NCBI GenBank assembly: GCA_965219995.1
Contig: CBDCOX010000002.1
Location: forward strand, 2,912,001-2,976,000
Length of the DNA stretch: 64,000 nucleotides
Direction of reading: 5' to 3'
Source: Candidatus Latescibacterota bacterium
GTDB lineage: Bacteria; Latescibacterota; UBA2968; GCA-2709665
The translations under genes were made by a program, and so were the position numbers. Position 1 is the stretch's first letter. Each line of letters opens with the position of its first letter. Under the pieces are notes generated by a model that made no database searches, was not told the DNA's origin, and saw only the letters and a program-made list of their open reading frames with translations. Of this stretch, positions 57,279 to 64,000 are shown piece by piece.

Positions 57279-58010
57279 ATGTCAAAACTGAAGGGAAAGG
57301 CCGCGCTGGTAACCGGCGGAAATCAGGGCATCGGAAAGGGAATCGCGCGGGCGCTGGCCAAAGAGGGCGCGAACATCGTGCTGACCGCCAGAACGGTCGG
57401 TAAGCTTGAATCGGCGGCGGCAGAGATCCGGACGGAAGGCGTGGAGGCGCTGGTCGCCCCCGCGGACGTCACGGACGAGTCCCAGGTGGAGTCCGTATTC
57501 GCGCAGACGATGGAACGTTTCGGCAGGCTGGATGTTCTGGTGAACAACGCGGCCGCCTTTGACGGGGGAAGAATCGACGAACTTTCCGCGTCGTCCTGGG
57601 ACTGGGCGATGGCGGTGAATCTTCGCGGGCCCTTCCTGTGCACCCGGGCGGCGTTTCGCATCATGAAGGAACAGGGCGGTGGTCGAATTATTAATATAGG
57701 CAGTATTTCCGCGCAGAGGGTTCGCCCGAATTCGGCGCCGTACAGCACGAGCAAGTTCGGCATCACCGGCCTGACGCATGCCACGGCGCTGGACGGCCGG
57801 GACTACGGGATCGTATGCTCCTGCCTGCACCCCGGCAACACGCTGGTGGAACGACGCGAGGAATCCGACGCGCCCACGGACGACGAACCGATGATGACGG
57901 TGGATGAACTGGCGCAGGCCGCGGTGACCATGGCAACGCTGCCGCTCCATGTCAACATGCTGGAGGCGATCGTCCTGCCCGTCGGACAGCTGTACGTTGG
58001 CAGAGGTTGA
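57279..58010 (+). CDS. SDR family oxidoreductase
   Basis: TGGNQGIG, NNAA, GRIINIGS, YSTSK. Confidence 0.9.
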   Translation: MSKLKGKAALVTGGNQGIGKGIARALAKEGANIVLTARTVGKLESAAAEIRTEGVEALVAPADVTDESQVESVFAQTMERFGRLDVLVNNAAAFDGGRIDELSASSWDWAMAVNLRGPFLCTRAAFRIMKEQGGGRIINIGSISAQRVRPNSAPYSTSKFGITGLTHATALDGRDYGIVCSCLHPGNTLVERREESDAPTDDEPMMTVDELAQAAVTMATLPLHVNMLEAIVLPVGQLYVGRG

Positions 58011-58113
58011 ATGGGCAACTTATCTCCGGGACAGAACAATGGGAGTTTCTTTCGGCTTCCGGTTCTCTTCCTGTAAATCCCGTTCATCCATTTCATCCTG
58101 ATATGGATTTAGC

Positions 58114-58142
58114 TTGACACTCTCGATATGATTGTTTAATGT
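58114..58142 (+). promoter_or_regulatory. trp operon promoter
   Basis: TTGACA-N17-TAATGT. Confidence 0.55.
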
Positions 58143-58222
58143 TAGACCGTTCCCGTTGGAAGGGCGGGTTTCCGCAACCCGGTACGCGACCCGCGGGACG
58201 CTGGATCATTGGAGGATTGAAC

Positions 58223-58330
58223 GTGACGGTTCGTGGTCGGAACAGGATTGCCTGGCGTGGATATTTTTACCGTTCCTACCGGTGGTATTACCGGGAGGCC
58301 GCGGAACGTCATGTCTGCCCACGCGAGTAA
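58223..58330 (+). CDS. trpL: Aromatic-rich attenuator leader peptide (MTVRGRNRIAWRGYFYRSYRWYYREAAERHVCPRE)
   Basis: GGAGG at 58211-58215, GTG start; 2 Trp, 5 Tyr and 1 Phe within codons 11-23; followed by attenuator structures. Confidence 0.8.
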   Translation: MTVRGRNRIAWRGYFYRSYRWYYREAAERHVCPRE

Positions 58331-58355
58331 ATCGTCAGCAAGTCTGAAAACCTGG

Positions 58356-58384
58356 CCGTGGGCATCTGCTCACGGTTTTTTTTT
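58356..58384 (+). terminator. Attenuator terminator
   Basis: CCGTGGGC-ATCT-GCTCACGG + T9; its 5' arm can instead pair with TGCCCACG (58316-58323). Confidence 0.88.
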
Positions 58385-58419
58385 GATCTGCTCGAATTCA
58401 GTCCTGCCCTTGAAGACAG

Positions 58420-59910
58420 GTGAGATTCGTGAGTACGCCCGACCTGGAAATGCTGACGACGCTGGCTGACGGCCGGGGACTGGTTCCTATTTCCCGCGAG
58501 ATCCTCGGGGATACCGAAACTCCGGTGTCCGCCTATCTCAAGCTGCAGCCCGGGAGCCCCTACAGCTTTCTCTTCGAAAGCGTGGAAGGCGGAGAAAAGA
58601 TCGGGCGCTATTCGTTCCTGGGCGTGGCGCCGTTTCTTGCGTTTCGGTCGTGGAAATCCCGGATCGAGGTGCAGGATCTGAAGCGGGGCGGGATTCGCAG
58701 ATTCGAGGGATCGCCCATTGCCGAACTCCGGCGTCTGCTGAAGAAATATCGTTCTGCGCAACTGGACGGTCTGCCCAGGTTCACCGGCGGGGCGGTGGGC
58801 TACGTGGGCTACGACGCGATCCGGCTGATCGAAGATATCCCCGACCGAACGGATGACGACCACGGTCTTCCCGACGTTGTGCTGCTGTTCTACGATACGC
58901 TTCTTTGCTTCGATAACGCACGGCAGAAGATACATCTGATTTCCAACGTGCACACGTCCGGCGATATCGAGAACAACCGGCGTGAGGCGGAGGCGAGGAT
59001 CGACTCGCTGGAAGGGGCCTTGCGCGGGACGATTCCGGCGAACGGTGTTTCCCGGGAACCGCCGCGACGCGGGGCGCGCGAGATACGGTCCAACACGGAG
59101 CGATCGGTCTTCCTGGAGAAGGTGCGGCGCTGCAGGGAGTATATCGAGGCGGGCGATATTTTTCAGGTCGTCCTTTCGCAGCGCTTCGAGACGGAGGTAA
59201 CCGCCGGATCGCTGGACATCTACCGCGCGCTTCGGACGGTAAATCCGTCGCCGTACATGTTCCATCTGGATTTGATGGATGCGCAACTCGTCGGGGCATC
59301 GCCCGAACTGCTGGTGCGTGTCGAAAACGGCGTGGTACAGGTGCGCCCGATCGCGGGTACTCGCTGGCGGGGCGCCACGGAAGAAGAGGATGCCGCCCTC
59401 GAGGCGGACTTGCTGGCCGACGAAAAGGAACGCGCGGAGCACATTATGCTCCTGGATCTTGGCCGCAACGACGTGGGGCGGGTATCCCGATACGATACGG
59501 TACGGGTAACGGAACAGATGGTGATCGAGCGATATTCTCACGTTATGCATATTGTCTCGAATGTTCAGGGGCATCTCAGAGACGGCGTGGATGCGCTGGA
59601 TGCGCTCTATGCGTGTTACCCGGCGGGCACGGTATCCGGCGCGCCCAAGATCCGCGCGATGGAGATTATCGACGAGCTGGAGCCGACTCGCAGGGGGCCG
59701 TACTCGGGGGCGGTAGGCTATATTGACTTTTCCGGCAATATGGATACGTGCATTGCCATACGAACGATGGTGCTGCAAGGACGGAAAGCGTACGTCCAGG
59801 CGGGCGGGGGCATTGTGTTCGATTCCGTACCGGAATACGAGCACCAGGAAACGGTAAACAAGGCGAAGGCGCTGTTCAAGGCGGTCGAGTTGGCGGAAGG
59901 CGCGTTGTAG
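58420..59910 (+). CDS. trpE: Anthranilate synthase component I
   Basis: [47 protein letters not shown]. Confidence 0.96.
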
Positions 59911-59959
59911 CGGCAACCGTGGATGACGCGATTCCTCAGCAGTCACATTTCGGCGACCT

Positions 59960-60523
59960 ATGATCCTCGTAATCGACAATTACGACTCGTTCACGTACAA
60001 TCTGGTTCAGTACCTGGGTGAGTTGGGCGCGCGGATGGAAGTATTCCGGAACGACCGGATTGCAATGGACCGGATTGACGCGTCCCAACCCGAGAAGGTG
60101 GTGATTTCACCGGGTCCATGTACGCCGAACGAAGCCGGAATCTCCGTGGGCCTGATCCGGCGTTTTACCGGGCGGATTCCGATGCTGGGGGTCTGTCTCG
60201 GACATCAGTGCATCGGGCAGGCCTTCGGAGGCAGGGTCGTTCGGGCTCCCGCGATTCTTCACGGCAAGGTGTCCGAGATCCATCACGACGGTCGCTCGAT
60301 TTTCAAGGGGTTGTCGCAGCCCTTCATTGCGACGCGATACCATTCGCTGATTGTCGAGCGGGAGAGCCTGCCGGACTGCCTCGAGATATCCGCACAGACA
60401 CACGACGGTATCATCATGGGACTGCGGCACAGGGAGTACCCGGTCGAGGGCGTGCAGTTTCATCCGGAGTCGATTCTAACGGCCGAAGGCAAAGTGTTGT
60501 TGAAAAATTTCCTGGATGGCTGA
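59960..60523 (+). CDS. trpG: Anthranilate synthase component II (glutamine amidotransferase)
   Basis: [32 protein letters not shown]. Confidence 0.95.
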
Positions 60524-60583
60524 GTTGGCAGTCCGGGAATCGGAAGCCGGTTCCGGTCCCCGTTTGCGAGTTGGGAGACGGCG

Positions 60584-61597
60584 ATGGCAATACAGGATGC
60601 GATTGCGGAATTGATTGAGGGACAGGACCTGACCCGTGACCGGACGATCGGGTCGATGAGCCAGATCATGTCGGGTGAGGCGACCGACGCGCAGATCGGT
60701 GCGTTCCTGGCGGCCCTCCGGGTGAAGGGCGAGACCGCCGACGAAATTGCGGGCGCCGCGGAGGTAATGAGGGAAAAGGCGACGCGCGTCGTCACGCGGC
60801 ACGCCACGGTGGTGGATACGTGCGGTACCGGAGGCGACGGGGCGGGGACGTTCAACATATCGACAGCGGCGGCTTTCGTGGTGGCCGGCGCCGGGCTGTG
60901 TGTTGCCAAACACGGAAACCGCGCGGCGAGCAGCCTGTGCGGAAGTGCCGACGTCCTGAAGGAACTGGGAGTAAACATCGAAGCGTCGCCGGAGACGATG
61001 GGGCGGTGTCTGGATGAAGTTGGCATCGGGTTTCTGTTTGCTCCTGCTCTGCACGGCGCCATGAAGTACGCGATTGGTCCCAGACGCGAAGTCGGCATCC
61101 GTACGATTTTCAACGCTCTGGGGCCGCTGACCAATCCCGCGGGCGCAACCCGGCACCTGATCGGCGTCTACAGTCGATCGCTGACCGGCAGGCTTGCCGA
61201 GGTGTTGCGCACATTGAAATCGGAACGCGCGTTTGTTGTGCACGGGTTGGACGGGCTGGATGAAATCACCACGACCGGTCCGACGCGGGTGAGCGAGCTG
61301 AACGATGGAGCCGTAACAACGTACGAGATCCGGCCTGAGGATCTTGGCATCCGAAGGTCGACGCCCGGTGATCTGGCGGGGGGCAACGCCGAAACCAATG
61401 CGTCGATCCTGCGCAGGGTGCTCAATGGTGAGCACGGTCCGCGGCGGGACATCGTCGTTTTGAACGCGGCAGCCGCCATCGTAGCCGGTGGTGCGGCAGA
61501 CGATTTGAAGGCGGGTATCGAACTGGCCGCGGAGACCGTGGATTCGGGGCGGGCAATGGACAAGCTGGAAGAACTGAAACGGGCTTCTGCGGGATGA
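60584..61597 (+). CDS. trpD: Anthranilate phosphoribosyltransferase
   Basis: DTCGTGGD, FNIST, KHGNR, GSAD, GLDE. Confidence 0.96.
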   Translation: MAIQDAIAELIEGQDLTRDRTIGSMSQIMSGEATDAQIGAFLAALRVKGETADEIAGAAEVMREKATRVVTRHATVVDTCGTGGDGAGTFNISTAAAFVVAGAGLCVAKHGNRAASSLCGSADVLKELGVNIEASPETMGRCLDEVGIGFLFAPALHGAMKYAIGPRREVGIRTIFNALGPLTNPAGATRHLIGVYSRSLTGRLAEVLRTLKSERAFVVHGLDGLDEITTTGPTRVSELNDGAVTTYEIRPEDLGIRRSTPGDLAGGNAETNASILRRVLNGEHGPRRDIVVLNAAAAIVAGGAADDLKAGIELAAETVDSGRAMDKLEELKRASAG

Positions 61598-61690
61598 AGC
61601 CGGCACCGAACGTTTACGATATCCTCGCCTTCGAGTTACGCCATGGACGGGACTGGCACCTGTTGGCGCGCGGAAACGAAGAAGGGGAAG

Positions 61691-62482
61691 ATGGCTACGA
61701 TTCTGGATGAGATCATCGCATATAAACGCCGCGTCGTGTCCGAGGCGAAGAAGCGGGTATCCCCTGAGGCGTTGCGGAAGCAGGCAAACCTGGTTCGTCG
61801 GCCGGACTCTCTGATGGACAGCCTGACTGCCGGGGAGGATATCGCGCTGATCGCGGAGATTAAAAAGGCATCTCCGTCCAAAGGGGTAATCAGGGAGAGT
61901 TTCGATCCTGTTGAAATCGGCCGATCTTACGAGAGAAACGGCGCGGCGGCCATTTCCGTGCTGACGGATGTAAAGTACTTCCGGGGCTCCGATGCCAGCC
62001 TGAGGGCGGTGAGCGAGGCCGTGGAATTGCCGGTGCTCCGGAAGGATTTCGTGGTTGATCCGTATCAGATCCACGAGGCCAGGACAATCGGCGCGTCCGC
62101 GGTTTTGCTCATTGTTTCAGCGCTTTCCCCGCGCGAATTGTCAGAGATGCTCACCGTTTGCAGGGAGTCGCAACTGGACGCGCTGGTGGAAGTGCACACT
62201 CCGGATGAAGCGAGGATGGCGCTGGATGCGGGCGCGGATCTCATGGGGGTGAATAACCGCGACCTGAAGACGTTTGCTACGGATTTGCAGACCACATTCG
62301 ATCTGCTTGAACACCTGCCGGACGATCTTGTCGTTGTGAGCGAGAGCGGCATCAGGACCAGAGACCAGGTCGTCCGGTTGAGGGATGCCGGCGTGGACGC
62401 GGTTCTGGTCGGAGAACATCTGATGCGCCAACCCGACGTGGGTCGGGAGCTTCGAGCGTTGCTGGGCATGGAAGGCGGCTGA
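61691..62482 (+). CDS. trpC: Indole-3-glycerol phosphate synthase
   Basis: IAEIKKASPSKG, SVLTD, LRKDF, GVNNRDL, SESGI. Confidence 0.96.
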   Translation: MATILDEIIAYKRRVVSEAKKRVSPEALRKQANLVRRPDSLMDSLTAGEDIALIAEIKKASPSKGVIRESFDPVEIGRSYERNGAAAISVLTDVKYFRGSDASLRAVSEAVELPVLRKDFVVDPYQIHEARTIGASAVLLIVSALSPRELSEMLTVCRESQLDALVEVHTPDEARMALDAGADLMGVNNRDLKTFATDLQTTFDLLEHLPDDLVVVSESGIRTRDQVVRLRDAGVDAVLVGEHLMRQPDVGRELRALLGMEGG

Positions 62483-62490
62483 TTCAACCT

Positions 62491-63153
62491 ATGGTTCGGG
62501 TGAAGATCTGCGGAATCACGAATCGGGAGGACGCGCTCTTTGCGGTCGCGCAGGGTGTGGACGCCCTGGGGTTCATCTTCTACGAGCGCAGCCCGCGTTA
62601 CGTGCATCCGGAACGCGTCGGCAGGATCGTGTCGGCGTTGCCGCCTTTCGTGACGCCTGTCGGGGTTTTCGTGAACACGGCCAGGGAGGAGATCCTGGCA
62701 ATAGCACGGATGACAGGGCTGCGGGCGGTCCAACTGCACGGCGACGAGACACCCGCCGAATGTCTGGGATATCCGATTCCGGTCATCCGGGCATTGCGGG
62801 TTGGCGACGGTTTCGACCCCGCTTCTCTGAGCGACTTTCCGGTCGACACGTTTCTGCTGGATACGGCCAAAAAGGGATGGTACGGCGGTACCGGAGAGAC
62901 GTTTGACTGGCGGGTCGCACGGGCGGCCGCGGCACACGGGCGGATCATTCTCTCGGGAGGAATCGATCCGTCGAACGTGGCGGACGCGGCGCGGACGGTG
63001 AATCCGTACGCGGTGGACTGCGGCAGCGGCGTCGAGGCCGCGCCGGGACGGAAGGACCACGACAGAATCGCGGAATTCTTCGAAGCGCTTCGCTCGGCAA
63101 CCCGCGACAACCGGCATTCCCGAACCCATCGTTCGAATTCATCCGGAGCCTGA
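62491..63153 (+). CDS. trpF: Phosphoribosylanthranilate isomerase
   Basis: VKICGIT, SPRYV, QLHGDE, GGTGETFDW, SGVE. Confidence 0.95.
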   Translation: MVRVKICGITNREDALFAVAQGVDALGFIFYERSPRYVHPERVGRIVSALPPFVTPVGVFVNTAREEILAIARMTGLRAVQLHGDETPAECLGYPIPVIRALRVGDGFDPASLSDFPVDTFLLDTAKKGWYGGTGETFDWRVARAAAAHGRIILSGGIDPSNVADAARTVNPYAVDCGSGVEAAPGRKDHDRIAEFFEALRSATRDNRHSRTHRSNSSGA

Positions 63154-63157
63154 ACCC

Positions 63158-64000
63158 GTGGACATCATGAAAGATCTGGAGTTTCGGGGATACGTCTTTC
63201 AGGTAACGGACCCCGGCGGCCTTAAATCGCGACTCGACCTGGGGCCGATGACGCTGTATTCGGGGTTCGACCCCACGGCAGACAGCCTGCACGTCGGCAA
63301 CCTGATCCCAATACTGGGACTGCGGCGGTTTCAATTGGCCGGGCATCATGCAATCGGGCTTATCGGGGGCGGCACGGGTTTGATTGGCGACCCGAGCGGC
63401 AGCCAGGAAGAACGCCCGTTGAACCCGCCCGAGCTGATCGCGGAATATACAGGGAAGCTCACGGAGCAACTGGCCAGATTCCTGGATTTCGAAACGGGGA
63501 CCAATCCCGCCCGCGTGGTCAGCAATCTGGGCTGGCTTTCCGAACTGAAGGCGATCGACTTCCTGAGAGACACGGGCAAGCACTTCTCCGTGGGTTATAT
63601 GCTGGCGAAAGAGTCCGTGGCTTCGCGGCTGGAGTCCGGAATTTCCTTCACGGAGTTCAGCTATATGGTCATTCAGGCCTATGACTTCATGGAGCTGTTT
63701 CGGACGCACGGGTGTGAACTCCAGATCGGCGGAAGCGATCAATGGGGAAATATAACAGCGGGAATCGAGTTGATCCGACGGCGGCTGGGCGGACAGGCCC
63801 ACGGCCTGACGTTTCCGCTGCTGCAGAAAGCCGACGGCACCAAGTTCGGTAAGACCGCCTCGGGGACGGTCTGGCTGGACGCGGAAAAGACGTCACCGTA
63901 CCAGCTGTACCAGCACATGATAAATACCGACGACCGGGACGTGGTGACGTTTCTCAAGCTGTTTACCTTTCTATCCGAGGATGAGATCGGGAACCTGGAG
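63158..64000 (+). CDS. tyrS: Tyrosyl-tRNA synthetase (runs off the window end)
   Basis: Hand-translated from GTG 63158: YSGFDPTADSLHVGN, IGDPSG, EFSY..QAYDF, QIGGSDQWGNI, KFGKT. Confidence 0.95.
   Translation, partial: MDIMKDLEFRGYVFQVTDPGGLKSRLDLGPMTLYSGFDPTADSLHVGNLIPILGLRRFQLAGHHAIGLIGGGTGLIGDPSGSQEERPLNPPELIAEYTGKLTEQLARFLDFETGTNPARVVSNLGWLSELKAIDFLRDTGKHFSVGYMLAKESVASRLESGISFTEFSYMVIQAYDFMELFRTHGCELQIGGSDQWGNITAGIELIRRRLGGQAHGLTFPLLQKADGTKFGKTASGTVWLDAEKTSPYQLYQHMINTDDRDVVTFLKLFTFLSEDEIGNLE

Follow-up and report, generated by a model that had tools for sequence, protein, structure and literature searches.

Which amino acids does a leader peptide sense when the short open reading frame (ORF) ahead of a tryptophan operon holds more tyrosine than tryptophan codons, and when the same operon encodes the tyrosyl-tRNA synthetase (TyrRS)? 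This question is raised by a 64,000-nucleotide (nt) stretch of DNA from a Candidatus Latescibacterota bacterium, hereafter the window, in which a 35-codon leader ORF precedes trpE and tyrS follows trpF. The parts of this leader, their conservation, the selection on its codons, and the content of the operon could be read directly from the genomes. From them, we conclude that the element is very probably a classical ribosome-mediated transcription attenuator of the Escherichia coli trpL type, lying ahead of an aromatic supraoperon and carrying multivalent aromatic codons. The features of the leader region are given below as positions of the window; consensus structures were obtained with RNAalifold on 15 congeners.

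58114 to 58142, + strand: promoter-like site, with -35 TTGACA at 58114-19, a 17-nt spacer, and -10 TAATGT at 58137-42
58147 to 58204, + strand: 5′ stem-loop of the leader transcript (RNAalifold consensus, 15 congeners)
58211 to 58215, + strand: Shine-Dalgarno (SD) sequence GGAGG, 7 nt 5′ of the leader start codon
58223 to 58330, + strand: leader ORF of 35 codons, GTG (58223) to TAA (58328-30), from the sequence and the ORF list
58253 to 58291, + strand: regulatory codon block, codons 11-23, with 2 Trp, 5 Tyr, and 1 Phe codons, from the translation
58245 to 58260, + strand: segment 1, the protector strand, with GCGTGG at 58255-60 (RNAalifold consensus)
58275 to 58298, + strand: inner hairpin over codons 19-25 (RNAalifold consensus)
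58316 to 58333, + strand: segment 2, spanning the stop codon; 58316-23 pairs with segment 3 and 58319-33 with segment 1
58354 to 58384, + strand: segments 3 and 4, the intrinsic terminator, with stem 58354-58377, loop 58364-67, and T run 58376-84

An earlier note on this DNA had pointed out the SD sequence, the 35-residue leader, its aromatic codons 11-23, the 8-nt complement, GCGTGG, and the terminator, and all of them were found at the coordinates given there. Codons 11-23 read W-R-G-Y-F-Y-R-S-Y-R-W-Y-Y, with 8 aromatic residues in 13. Located 5 nt ahead of the stop codon, TGCCCACG (58316-23) is the exact reverse complement, over 8 nt, of CGTGGGCA (58357-64), while GCGTGG is complementary to CCACGC (58319-24) in a helix that belongs to the consensus structure of the 15 congeners. 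The terminator is made of a 10-pair stem followed by nine T (-15.6 kcal/mol) and is the only strong + strand terminator-like site that a terminator scan returned in 58100-64000. The promoter block TTGACA...TGATTGTTTAA is near-invariant among the 15 congeners, and TTGACA, 17 nt, and TAnnnT also occur in the leaders of other genera; a stricter consensus promoter scan did not list the site at 58114-58142.

Leader translation, ribosome stalling, the kinetic choice between helices, and the identity of the sensed amino acids we infer from these sequences. Transcription would start near 58149, and a ribosome loading at GGAGG/GTG would translate the 35-codon leader behind RNA polymerase. With Trp-, Tyr-, and Phe-tRNAs all charged, the ribosome would reach the stop codon (58328-30) and cover segment 2 (58316-33), upon which segments 3 and 4 would pair and transcription would end at the T run (58376-84). 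Should any of the three tRNAs be undercharged, the ribosome would stall in codons 11-23 and cover or split off segment 1 (58245-60); segment 2, now free, would pair with segment 3 while segment 4 has yet to be transcribed, and read-through would transcribe trpEGDCF, tyrS, an HMGL-like gene, trpBA, the chorismate mutase and DAHP synthase genes, tyrA, and aroA. The logic would be that of an OR gate for the three aromatic amino acids, weighted toward Tyr by five codons compared to two for Trp and one for Phe.

Could these parts have come together by chance? An exact complement of at least 8 nt to the terminator 5′ arm and loop was found within 132 nt upstream in 9 of 1,000 dinucleotide shuffles (p ~0.009). 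The codon block was compared with 30,334 small-ORF instances from the whole genome, defined as SD-preceded and 12-55 amino acids long: this ORF alone reached 8 aromatic codons in a 13-codon window, and six other ORFs reached 7. That the ORF merely happens to lie next to a terminator belonging to the SDR gene upstream, with no regulatory device present, is scarcely credible. The energy of the antiterminator duplex taken alone, which falls within the shuffled range, would fit such an accident, but the SDR gene, which stops at 58010, is followed by a weak hairpin of its own (58040-61), the conserved promoter is situated between this gene and the leader, the aromatic density is the extreme of the genome, and leader and terminator remain beside trpE in two families and beyond even though the flanks differ. 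As to expression of the attenuator region, two of three metatranscriptome runs from a single study gave Logan contigs that span 58189/58196-58399 with 90-99% identity and so come from a relative, and others cover portions of trpE. These contigs show presence in RNA libraries only, with neither transcript ends nor levels; DNA carry-over is possible and uncovered stretches are uninformative, so that they provide weak support for transcription.

Is the leader maintained as codons or as RNA? Its reading frame stays open throughout the 15 genomes of the genus (genome G003 lacks the GTG but has an ATG in frame, one codon downstream), with a leader DNA identity of 77-91% to 14/14 congeners, and the SD position holds GGAGG, GGGG, or GAGG in 14 of the 15 (GAGCA in genome G007). 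Seven kinds of change were seen at Tyr/Phe codons, four of them synonymous (TAT/TAC) and three Tyr-to-Phe. No non-aromatic replacement occurred at these codons among the 15 congeners, and the Tyr positions stay aromatic in every one. Trp11 is lost in two congeners and Trp21 in five, never both, so that at least one Trp codon is present everywhere. Outside the aromatic block, the peptide drifts, with 14, 15, and 19 variable columns at codon positions 1, 2, and 3, respectively. In segment 2, GT.TG.CC is invariant over 16 leaders from seven genera, and its UGCCCAC encodes Cys-Pro in genus g1 and Met-Pro-Thr in genera g2 and g4, i.e., in differing reading frames. Because g2 and g4 read these bases in another frame, segment 2 is constrained as RNA. 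The Tyr/Phe codons of the leader are retained at the level of codon meaning, in line with the earlier proposal, and the combination of a segment 2 conserved as RNA and an aromatic block conserved as codons is the pattern expected of an attenuator.

These data also bear on whether the nascent peptide itself could be the sensor, either as a TnaC-like arrest peptide for free aromatic amino acids or as a functional small protein. The core W-R-G-Y-F-Y-R-S-Y-R-x-Y-Y-R-E is near-invariant in the genus and the motif W-R-x-[F/Y] recurs across the phylum, as such a role would call for. We nonetheless consider it very improbable, since residues outside the aromatic block vary freely at all three codon positions, the C-terminal part is conserved as nucleotides in different frames, and the terminator/antiterminator geometry is that of codon-sensing attenuators.

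What would such an attenuator control? The genes following the leader in the window are as follows.

58420 to 59910, + strand: trpE, anthranilate synthase component I (TIGR00564, 595.8 bits)
59960 to 60523, + strand: trpG (TIGR00566, 265.3 bits)
60584 to 61597, + strand: trpD (TIGR01245, 424.9 bits)
61643 to 62482, + strand: trpC (NF001377, 327.3 bits)
62491 to 63153, + strand: trpF (NF002298, 240.8 bits)
63158 to 64000, + strand: tyrS, first 281 codons in the window (TIGR00234, 309.4 bits for the in-window part)

The true start of trpE may be the GTG at 58429. With trpF ending at 63153 and tyrS starting at 63158, the 4-nt gap described earlier was recovered. The whole tyrS gene reaches window-equivalent position 64420 (TIGR00234, 377.2 bits) and is the only TyrRS match above the cut-off in the genome, the second class-I match being trpS. 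The unit had been presented as trpEGDCF-tyrS, which falls short of its real extent: the operon runs past the window on the same strand with an HMGL-like gene, trpB, trpA, the chorismate mutase and DAHP synthase genes, tyrA (prephenate dehydrogenase), and aroA, with trpB and trpA lying ~1.2 kb farther along than tyrS. Across a 290-nt gap after aroA comes aroE, which is perhaps also part of the operon. The unit is an aromatic supraoperon of roughly 13 genes, whose products yield Trp, Tyr, and the precursor common to Phe and Tyr and charge tRNA-Tyr. Since it holds both tyrS and genes of the Tyr/Phe pathway, the Tyr/Phe codons of the leader are explained by the pathway genes as much as by tyrS. 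No + strand promoter-like site from which tyrS could be expressed separately was found in or after trpF in the window, although one of another type may be present.

The surroundings of tyrS and the supraoperon yielded several additional observations. In three congeners (loci L063, L064, and L065), the trpF-tyrS gap is ~100-330 nt long and unconserved, and the promoter scan gave nothing convincing: for two congeners with such longer spacers, the sole + strand promoter-like match lies inside tyrS, and one locus has no match. The tyrS stop codon is directly followed by a hairpin of 8 pairs and a weak T-rich tail (L010:7423-7442; window-equivalent 64422-64441), which could be a partial terminator or a stabilizer separating trpEGDCF-tyrS from the distal genes. 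Next to it, between tyrS and trpB, is the HMGL-like aldolase-family gene (PF00682; L010:7443-8495, window-equivalent 64442-65494), which takes this place in genera g1, g6, and g10 and is better conserved than any other gene of the cluster, with 80-88% identity between families compared to ~69% for trpE. The prephenate dehydratase gene pheA is unlinked, at G000:C2:2864953-2865486 (L123), ~105 kb upstream of the leader, and neither a leader ORF nor a T-run terminator was found in its upstream region.

How widely is this arrangement distributed? A motif scan for the exact antiterminator-terminator pattern, with one genome per species, returned 19 records, which according to the depositors' titles correspond to 15 Candidatus Latescibacterota, 3 Gemmatimonadota, and 1 "uncultured bacterium." Six other genera from this order retain the TTGACA-17 nt-TAnnnT promoter, the SD sequence, an aromatic-rich ORF of 30-35 codons, and the terminator, the 5′ arm of which starts 19-27 nt past the stop codon. 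The layout proposed in the earlier note, with leader, predicted protector and antiterminator, and terminator, is conserved in 16/16 leaders from seven genera, the ORF ending 19-27 nt before the terminator. The gene order trpEGDCF-tyrS-...-trpBA-chorismate mutase-aroG-tyrA-aroA-aroE is held in both families of the order. Moreover, tyrS lies in the operon in 10 of 11 genera of the order, which are all those examinable (the contig of genus g7 is cut); leader, terminator, and the position of tyrS between trpF and trpB are thereby conserved throughout an order of the phylum. In genera g2 and g5, and in g26 of a neighboring family, the slot between trpF and trpB carries a different TyrRS type (29% identical to that of this genome; 381.6 bits, TIGR00234), which looks like a replacement in place. 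Its coordinates are given here for one locus.

L060:5129-6346, with equivalent slots in L062, L098, and L103: alternative TyrRS

Some relatives depart from this plan in other respects. In loci L026-L028, L085, L087, L092, and L086, from other genera, a second conserved promoter-like block (TTGACAA..., ...AATAGAATTCTTACAGTTA) lies between the leader terminator and trpE, i.e., past the attenuator; this genus lacks the block, which could be an attenuator bypass or an operator. A DNA methylase gene and a MjaI-type restriction endonuclease gene are inserted between tyrS and trpB in genome G017 (L061:9898-11811), and a REP-associated tyrosine transposase gene is inserted between the chorismate mutase and DAHP synthase genes in genome G015 (L060:9605-10372).

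Does the leader need to be translated at all? The 5′ stem-loop at 58147-58204 comprises 10 pairs, 2 of which show compensatory changes (RNAalifold, 15 congeners). Together with a leader of ~235 nt and a loop UGGU (58283-86) that superficially resembles the bulge of a T-box, this genus-specific structure would suit control by an RNA-binding factor independent of translation (T-box-like, TRAP-like, or a riboswitch), with an incidental ORF. We regard this as extremely improbable: other genera retain the ORF, the SD, and the start, whereas their shorter leaders do not have the 5′ stem-loop, and the UGGU loop becomes AGGU, UUGU, or UAUU in congeners. Rfam covariance models searched over 57900-58600 at E up to 10 gave four matches, none of which was a T-box (RF00230), Trp_leader (RF00513), or Bacteroid-trp (RF01692), and no T-box at gathering score was present in the 16-kb locus or in the loci of six relatives. 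The T-box, which the UGGU loop and the ~235-nt leader had suggested, was ruled out by these scans and by the variability of the loop. No gene for TRAP (PF02081) was found in the genome, the completeness of which is 98.6% (a control search matched that of Bacillus subtilis), although (G/U)AG repeats were not formally searched. The sole T-box-like match in the 5.4-Mb genome is at G000:C2:107648-107943 and, with 69.8 bits, falls short of the gathering score of 93.

Having retained a translated leader as the probable sensor, we compared its codons with the genes of the operon in other genera. The earlier note had predicted that Tyr codons in orthologous leaders would covary with tyrS in the operon. 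As predicted, Tyr codons outnumber Trp codons in 11/11 genera with tyrS between trpF and trpB (Tyr 2-6, Trp 1-2) and in 0/11 genera with an operon lacking tyrS (Tyr 1-2, Trp 2-4; motifs R-W-W-W-R-F-W and R-Y-W-W-R-F), the absence of tyrS being judged over 7-10 kb of each operon. No leader was found under the criteria used in 5 of 18 genomes outside the order, and among the genera without tyrS the terminator is missing in g25 and distant in g42. The genera with tyrS are close kin, and the within-family contrast of g26 versus g30 is a second comparison; the link between Tyr codons and tyrS thus amounts to only one or two independent contrasts, or evolutionary events, and constitutes a consistent pattern, not statistical proof.

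The same genome contains a second leader-peptide attenuator, in which a 25-codon W-W-W ORF and then a terminator directly precede trpS.

G000:C2:3706281-3706358 (L002:2242-2319), - strand, outside the window: trpS leader ORF
C2:3705129-3706220: trpS (TIGR00233, 313.4 bits)

WW or WWW is present in at least 9 of the 12 congener loci parsed, and the trpS leader is purely W-W-W, with no Tyr codon. Because this leader carries W-W-W in the same genome, leader codons track the regulated gene, and this speaks for a meaning of the Tyr codons ahead of the supraoperon. A crude genome scan for small ORFs rich in a single amino acid and located before terminators gave 68 candidates, of which only the supraoperon and trpS leaders were convincing; his, leu, thr, and ilv leaders were not found under its criteria.

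Can the leader RNA switch in the way that attenuation demands? The RNAalifold consensus represents the terminated state, with the 1:2 helix (58245-60/58319-33), the inner hairpin (58275-98), and the terminator. Its helices are 96.5% paired in the 15 congeners (93.8% for the 1:2 helix and 97.0% for the inner hairpin). The inner hairpin is a possible pause hairpin, and the variable Trp21 codon is found at the loop end of its stem. Across the seven genera, 96.9% of the cells of the terminator are paired, 2 pairs show compensatory changes, and its covariation score was matched by 0 of 500 shuffles. When the terminator 3′ arm is omitted, the 5′ arm pairs with the 3′ end of the ORF in 15 of 16 leaders (G018 differs), in a register that is lineage specific (GUAU:AUAC in g3, GUUU:AAAC in g6); by eye, the pair flanking the antiterminator is A:U, U:A, or C:G in four genera and mismatched in three. 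Enforced folds of this genome are close in energy, with -64.8 kcal/mol for the terminator and -62.0 kcal/mol for the antiterminator. A start-codon helix (58223-38/58297-58312) that is part of the minimum free energy (MFE) structure of this genome and looked compensatory by eye was dropped as a conserved feature, being 80.9% paired on the 15 congeners and no better than shuffles.

In addition to the small number of independent contrasts, several observations weigh against the attenuator as we describe it. Within the genus, the consensus helices barely vary and hence provide no covariation. Across the seven genera, in the register of this genome, the antiterminator is 86.7% paired without any compensatory change, and all 500 shuffles had a covariation score at least as high. 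The energy of its duplex is unexceptional, as 31 of 300 shuffles do as well as this genome and z ranges from +0.3 to -2.0, and the exact complements in genera g5, g6, and g8 are not significant. The 1:2 helix lies outside the MFE structure of this genome (-41.7 versus -47.6 kcal/mol, i.e., 5.9 worse), and the equilibrium fold favors the terminator even when a stalled ribosome is masked. Metagenome assemblies are the only source for this organism. The conserved inner hairpin takes in Tyr19, Trp21, Tyr22, and Tyr23, four of the eight aromatic codons, and their conservation could be partly structural. Finally, in the nearest studied case, the aroR leader of Corynebacterium glutamicum, Tyr is without effect: according to a review, this Phe-Tyr-Phe leader before aroF attenuates a common-pathway operon and responds to Phe, not Tyr (PMC11802643). 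Regarding the equilibrium fold, which gives the terminator with the ribosome masked, it follows that the switch must be kinetic and cotranscriptional. The E. coli trpL switch is likewise kinetic.

The last two of these points would also be explained if the leader peptide, although part of a genuine attenuator, responded in practice to Trp alone or to Trp and Phe. The Tyr codons would then be side effects of RNA structure or of a U/A-rich spacer, and tyrS would simply be transcribed along with its neighbors. Consistent with this, every leader of the phylum has at least one Trp codon, leaders outside the order are dominated by Trp, Tyr19, Tyr22, and Tyr23 sit inside the hairpin, and the C. glutamicum leader answered Phe alone of its two amino acids. 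We nevertheless find it unlikely. Tyr14-Phe15-Tyr16 is outside the predicted stems, and yet its changes are only synonymous or to Phe; Tyr codons persist in genera with differing leader RNA sequence; the trpS leader of the same genome has no Tyr; and Trp codons are the ones lost in congeners (Trp21 in 5/15, Trp11 in 2/15), whereas the Tyr positions are aromatic in 15/15.

Attenuation with multivalent aromatic codons remains our preferred reading of the locus. For a more extended proposal we see about even chances, namely that the leader codons coevolved with the operon: an ancestral, Trp-weighted trpE leader of Latescibacterota would have become Tyr-weighted in the lineage where the sole tyrS joined the trp/aro supraoperon, the tyrS slot would have been kept despite replacement of the TyrRS type, and the result would be a sensor with three inputs, the charging of Trp-, Tyr-, and Phe-tRNAs, that sets both synthesis and the TyrRS level, and the first TyrRS under leader-peptide attenuation. 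In any case, the locus extends textbook attenuation to an uncultured phylum nearly without T-boxes, and it offers a natural series of leaders, from Trp-rich to Tyr-rich, along with a W-W-W trpS leader, in which the choice of codons can be compared with the genes under control. Should Tyr sensing be confirmed, this would be a clean case of one multivalent leader over a synthetase and three biosynthetic branches, and a compact sensor part for aromatic amino acid supply.

How does this leader compare with known systems? The E. coli trpL leader has two tandem Trp codons only and controls five trp genes. Similarly to trpL, the present leader is short and presumably translated, is predicted to form protector, antiterminator, and terminator helices from segments 1-4, has the stop codon adjoining segment 2, and precedes trpE. 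Unlike trpL, it has 5 Tyr, 2 Trp, and 1 Phe codons and stands before ~13 genes, including tyrS, tyrA, the chorismate mutase and DAHP synthase genes, and aroA; the corresponding Trp_leader family gave no sequence or covariance-model match here at E up to 10. Multivalence is known from the E. coli ilvGMEDA, ilvBN, and thr leaders, in which shortage of any one amino acid relieves termination, but these sense branched-chain amino acids or Thr/Ile and not aromatic amino acids as here. The aromatic supraoperon of B. subtilis is controlled by TRAP, with tyrS outside the supraoperon and under a T-box. Both organisms join trp with aro and tyrA in one long unit and tie tyrS expression to tRNA charging, predictedly so here; in contrast to B. 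subtilis, the present genome has no TRAP gene found, no T-box at the locus, another gene order, and tyrS inside the unit.

The aroR leader of C. glutamicum was reportedly studied by Neshat et al. in 2014. Its mixed aromatic codons are reminiscent of those described here; it differs in having three codons versus eight, no Trp codon, and neither trp genes nor a synthetase gene downstream, and it belongs to a different phylum. The Bacteroid-trp motif holds a Trp-codon ORF. It precedes trp genes in a phylum of the same superphylum, and its covariance model had no match at the present locus at E up to 10. This motif (RF01692) appears as a cis-regulatory RNA in Table 1 of PMC2864571. Attenuated synthetase genes are also on record, including E. 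coli pheST and Streptomyces trpS and leuS, which have leaders with cognate codons (PMC1262725). In those cases, the synthetase owns its leader, whereas here the TyrRS gene lies within a biosynthetic supraoperon, with whose other genes it has the mixed leader in common.

We found no literature report of tyrS under leader-peptide attenuation, although the cross-phylum attenuator survey by Lopatovskaya et al. (2010) may hold an earlier mention, and no description of the present arrangement in the literature on tyrS in trp supraoperons or on tryptophan attenuation in Latescibacteria. The earlier suggestion that such an arrangement had not been described needs correction in view of the multivalent attenuators already known and of the aromatic F-Y-F leader of aroR (PMC11802643). 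Compared with these systems, the mechanism is not new in kind; what is unusual is the mix of codons and the set of genes placed behind them.

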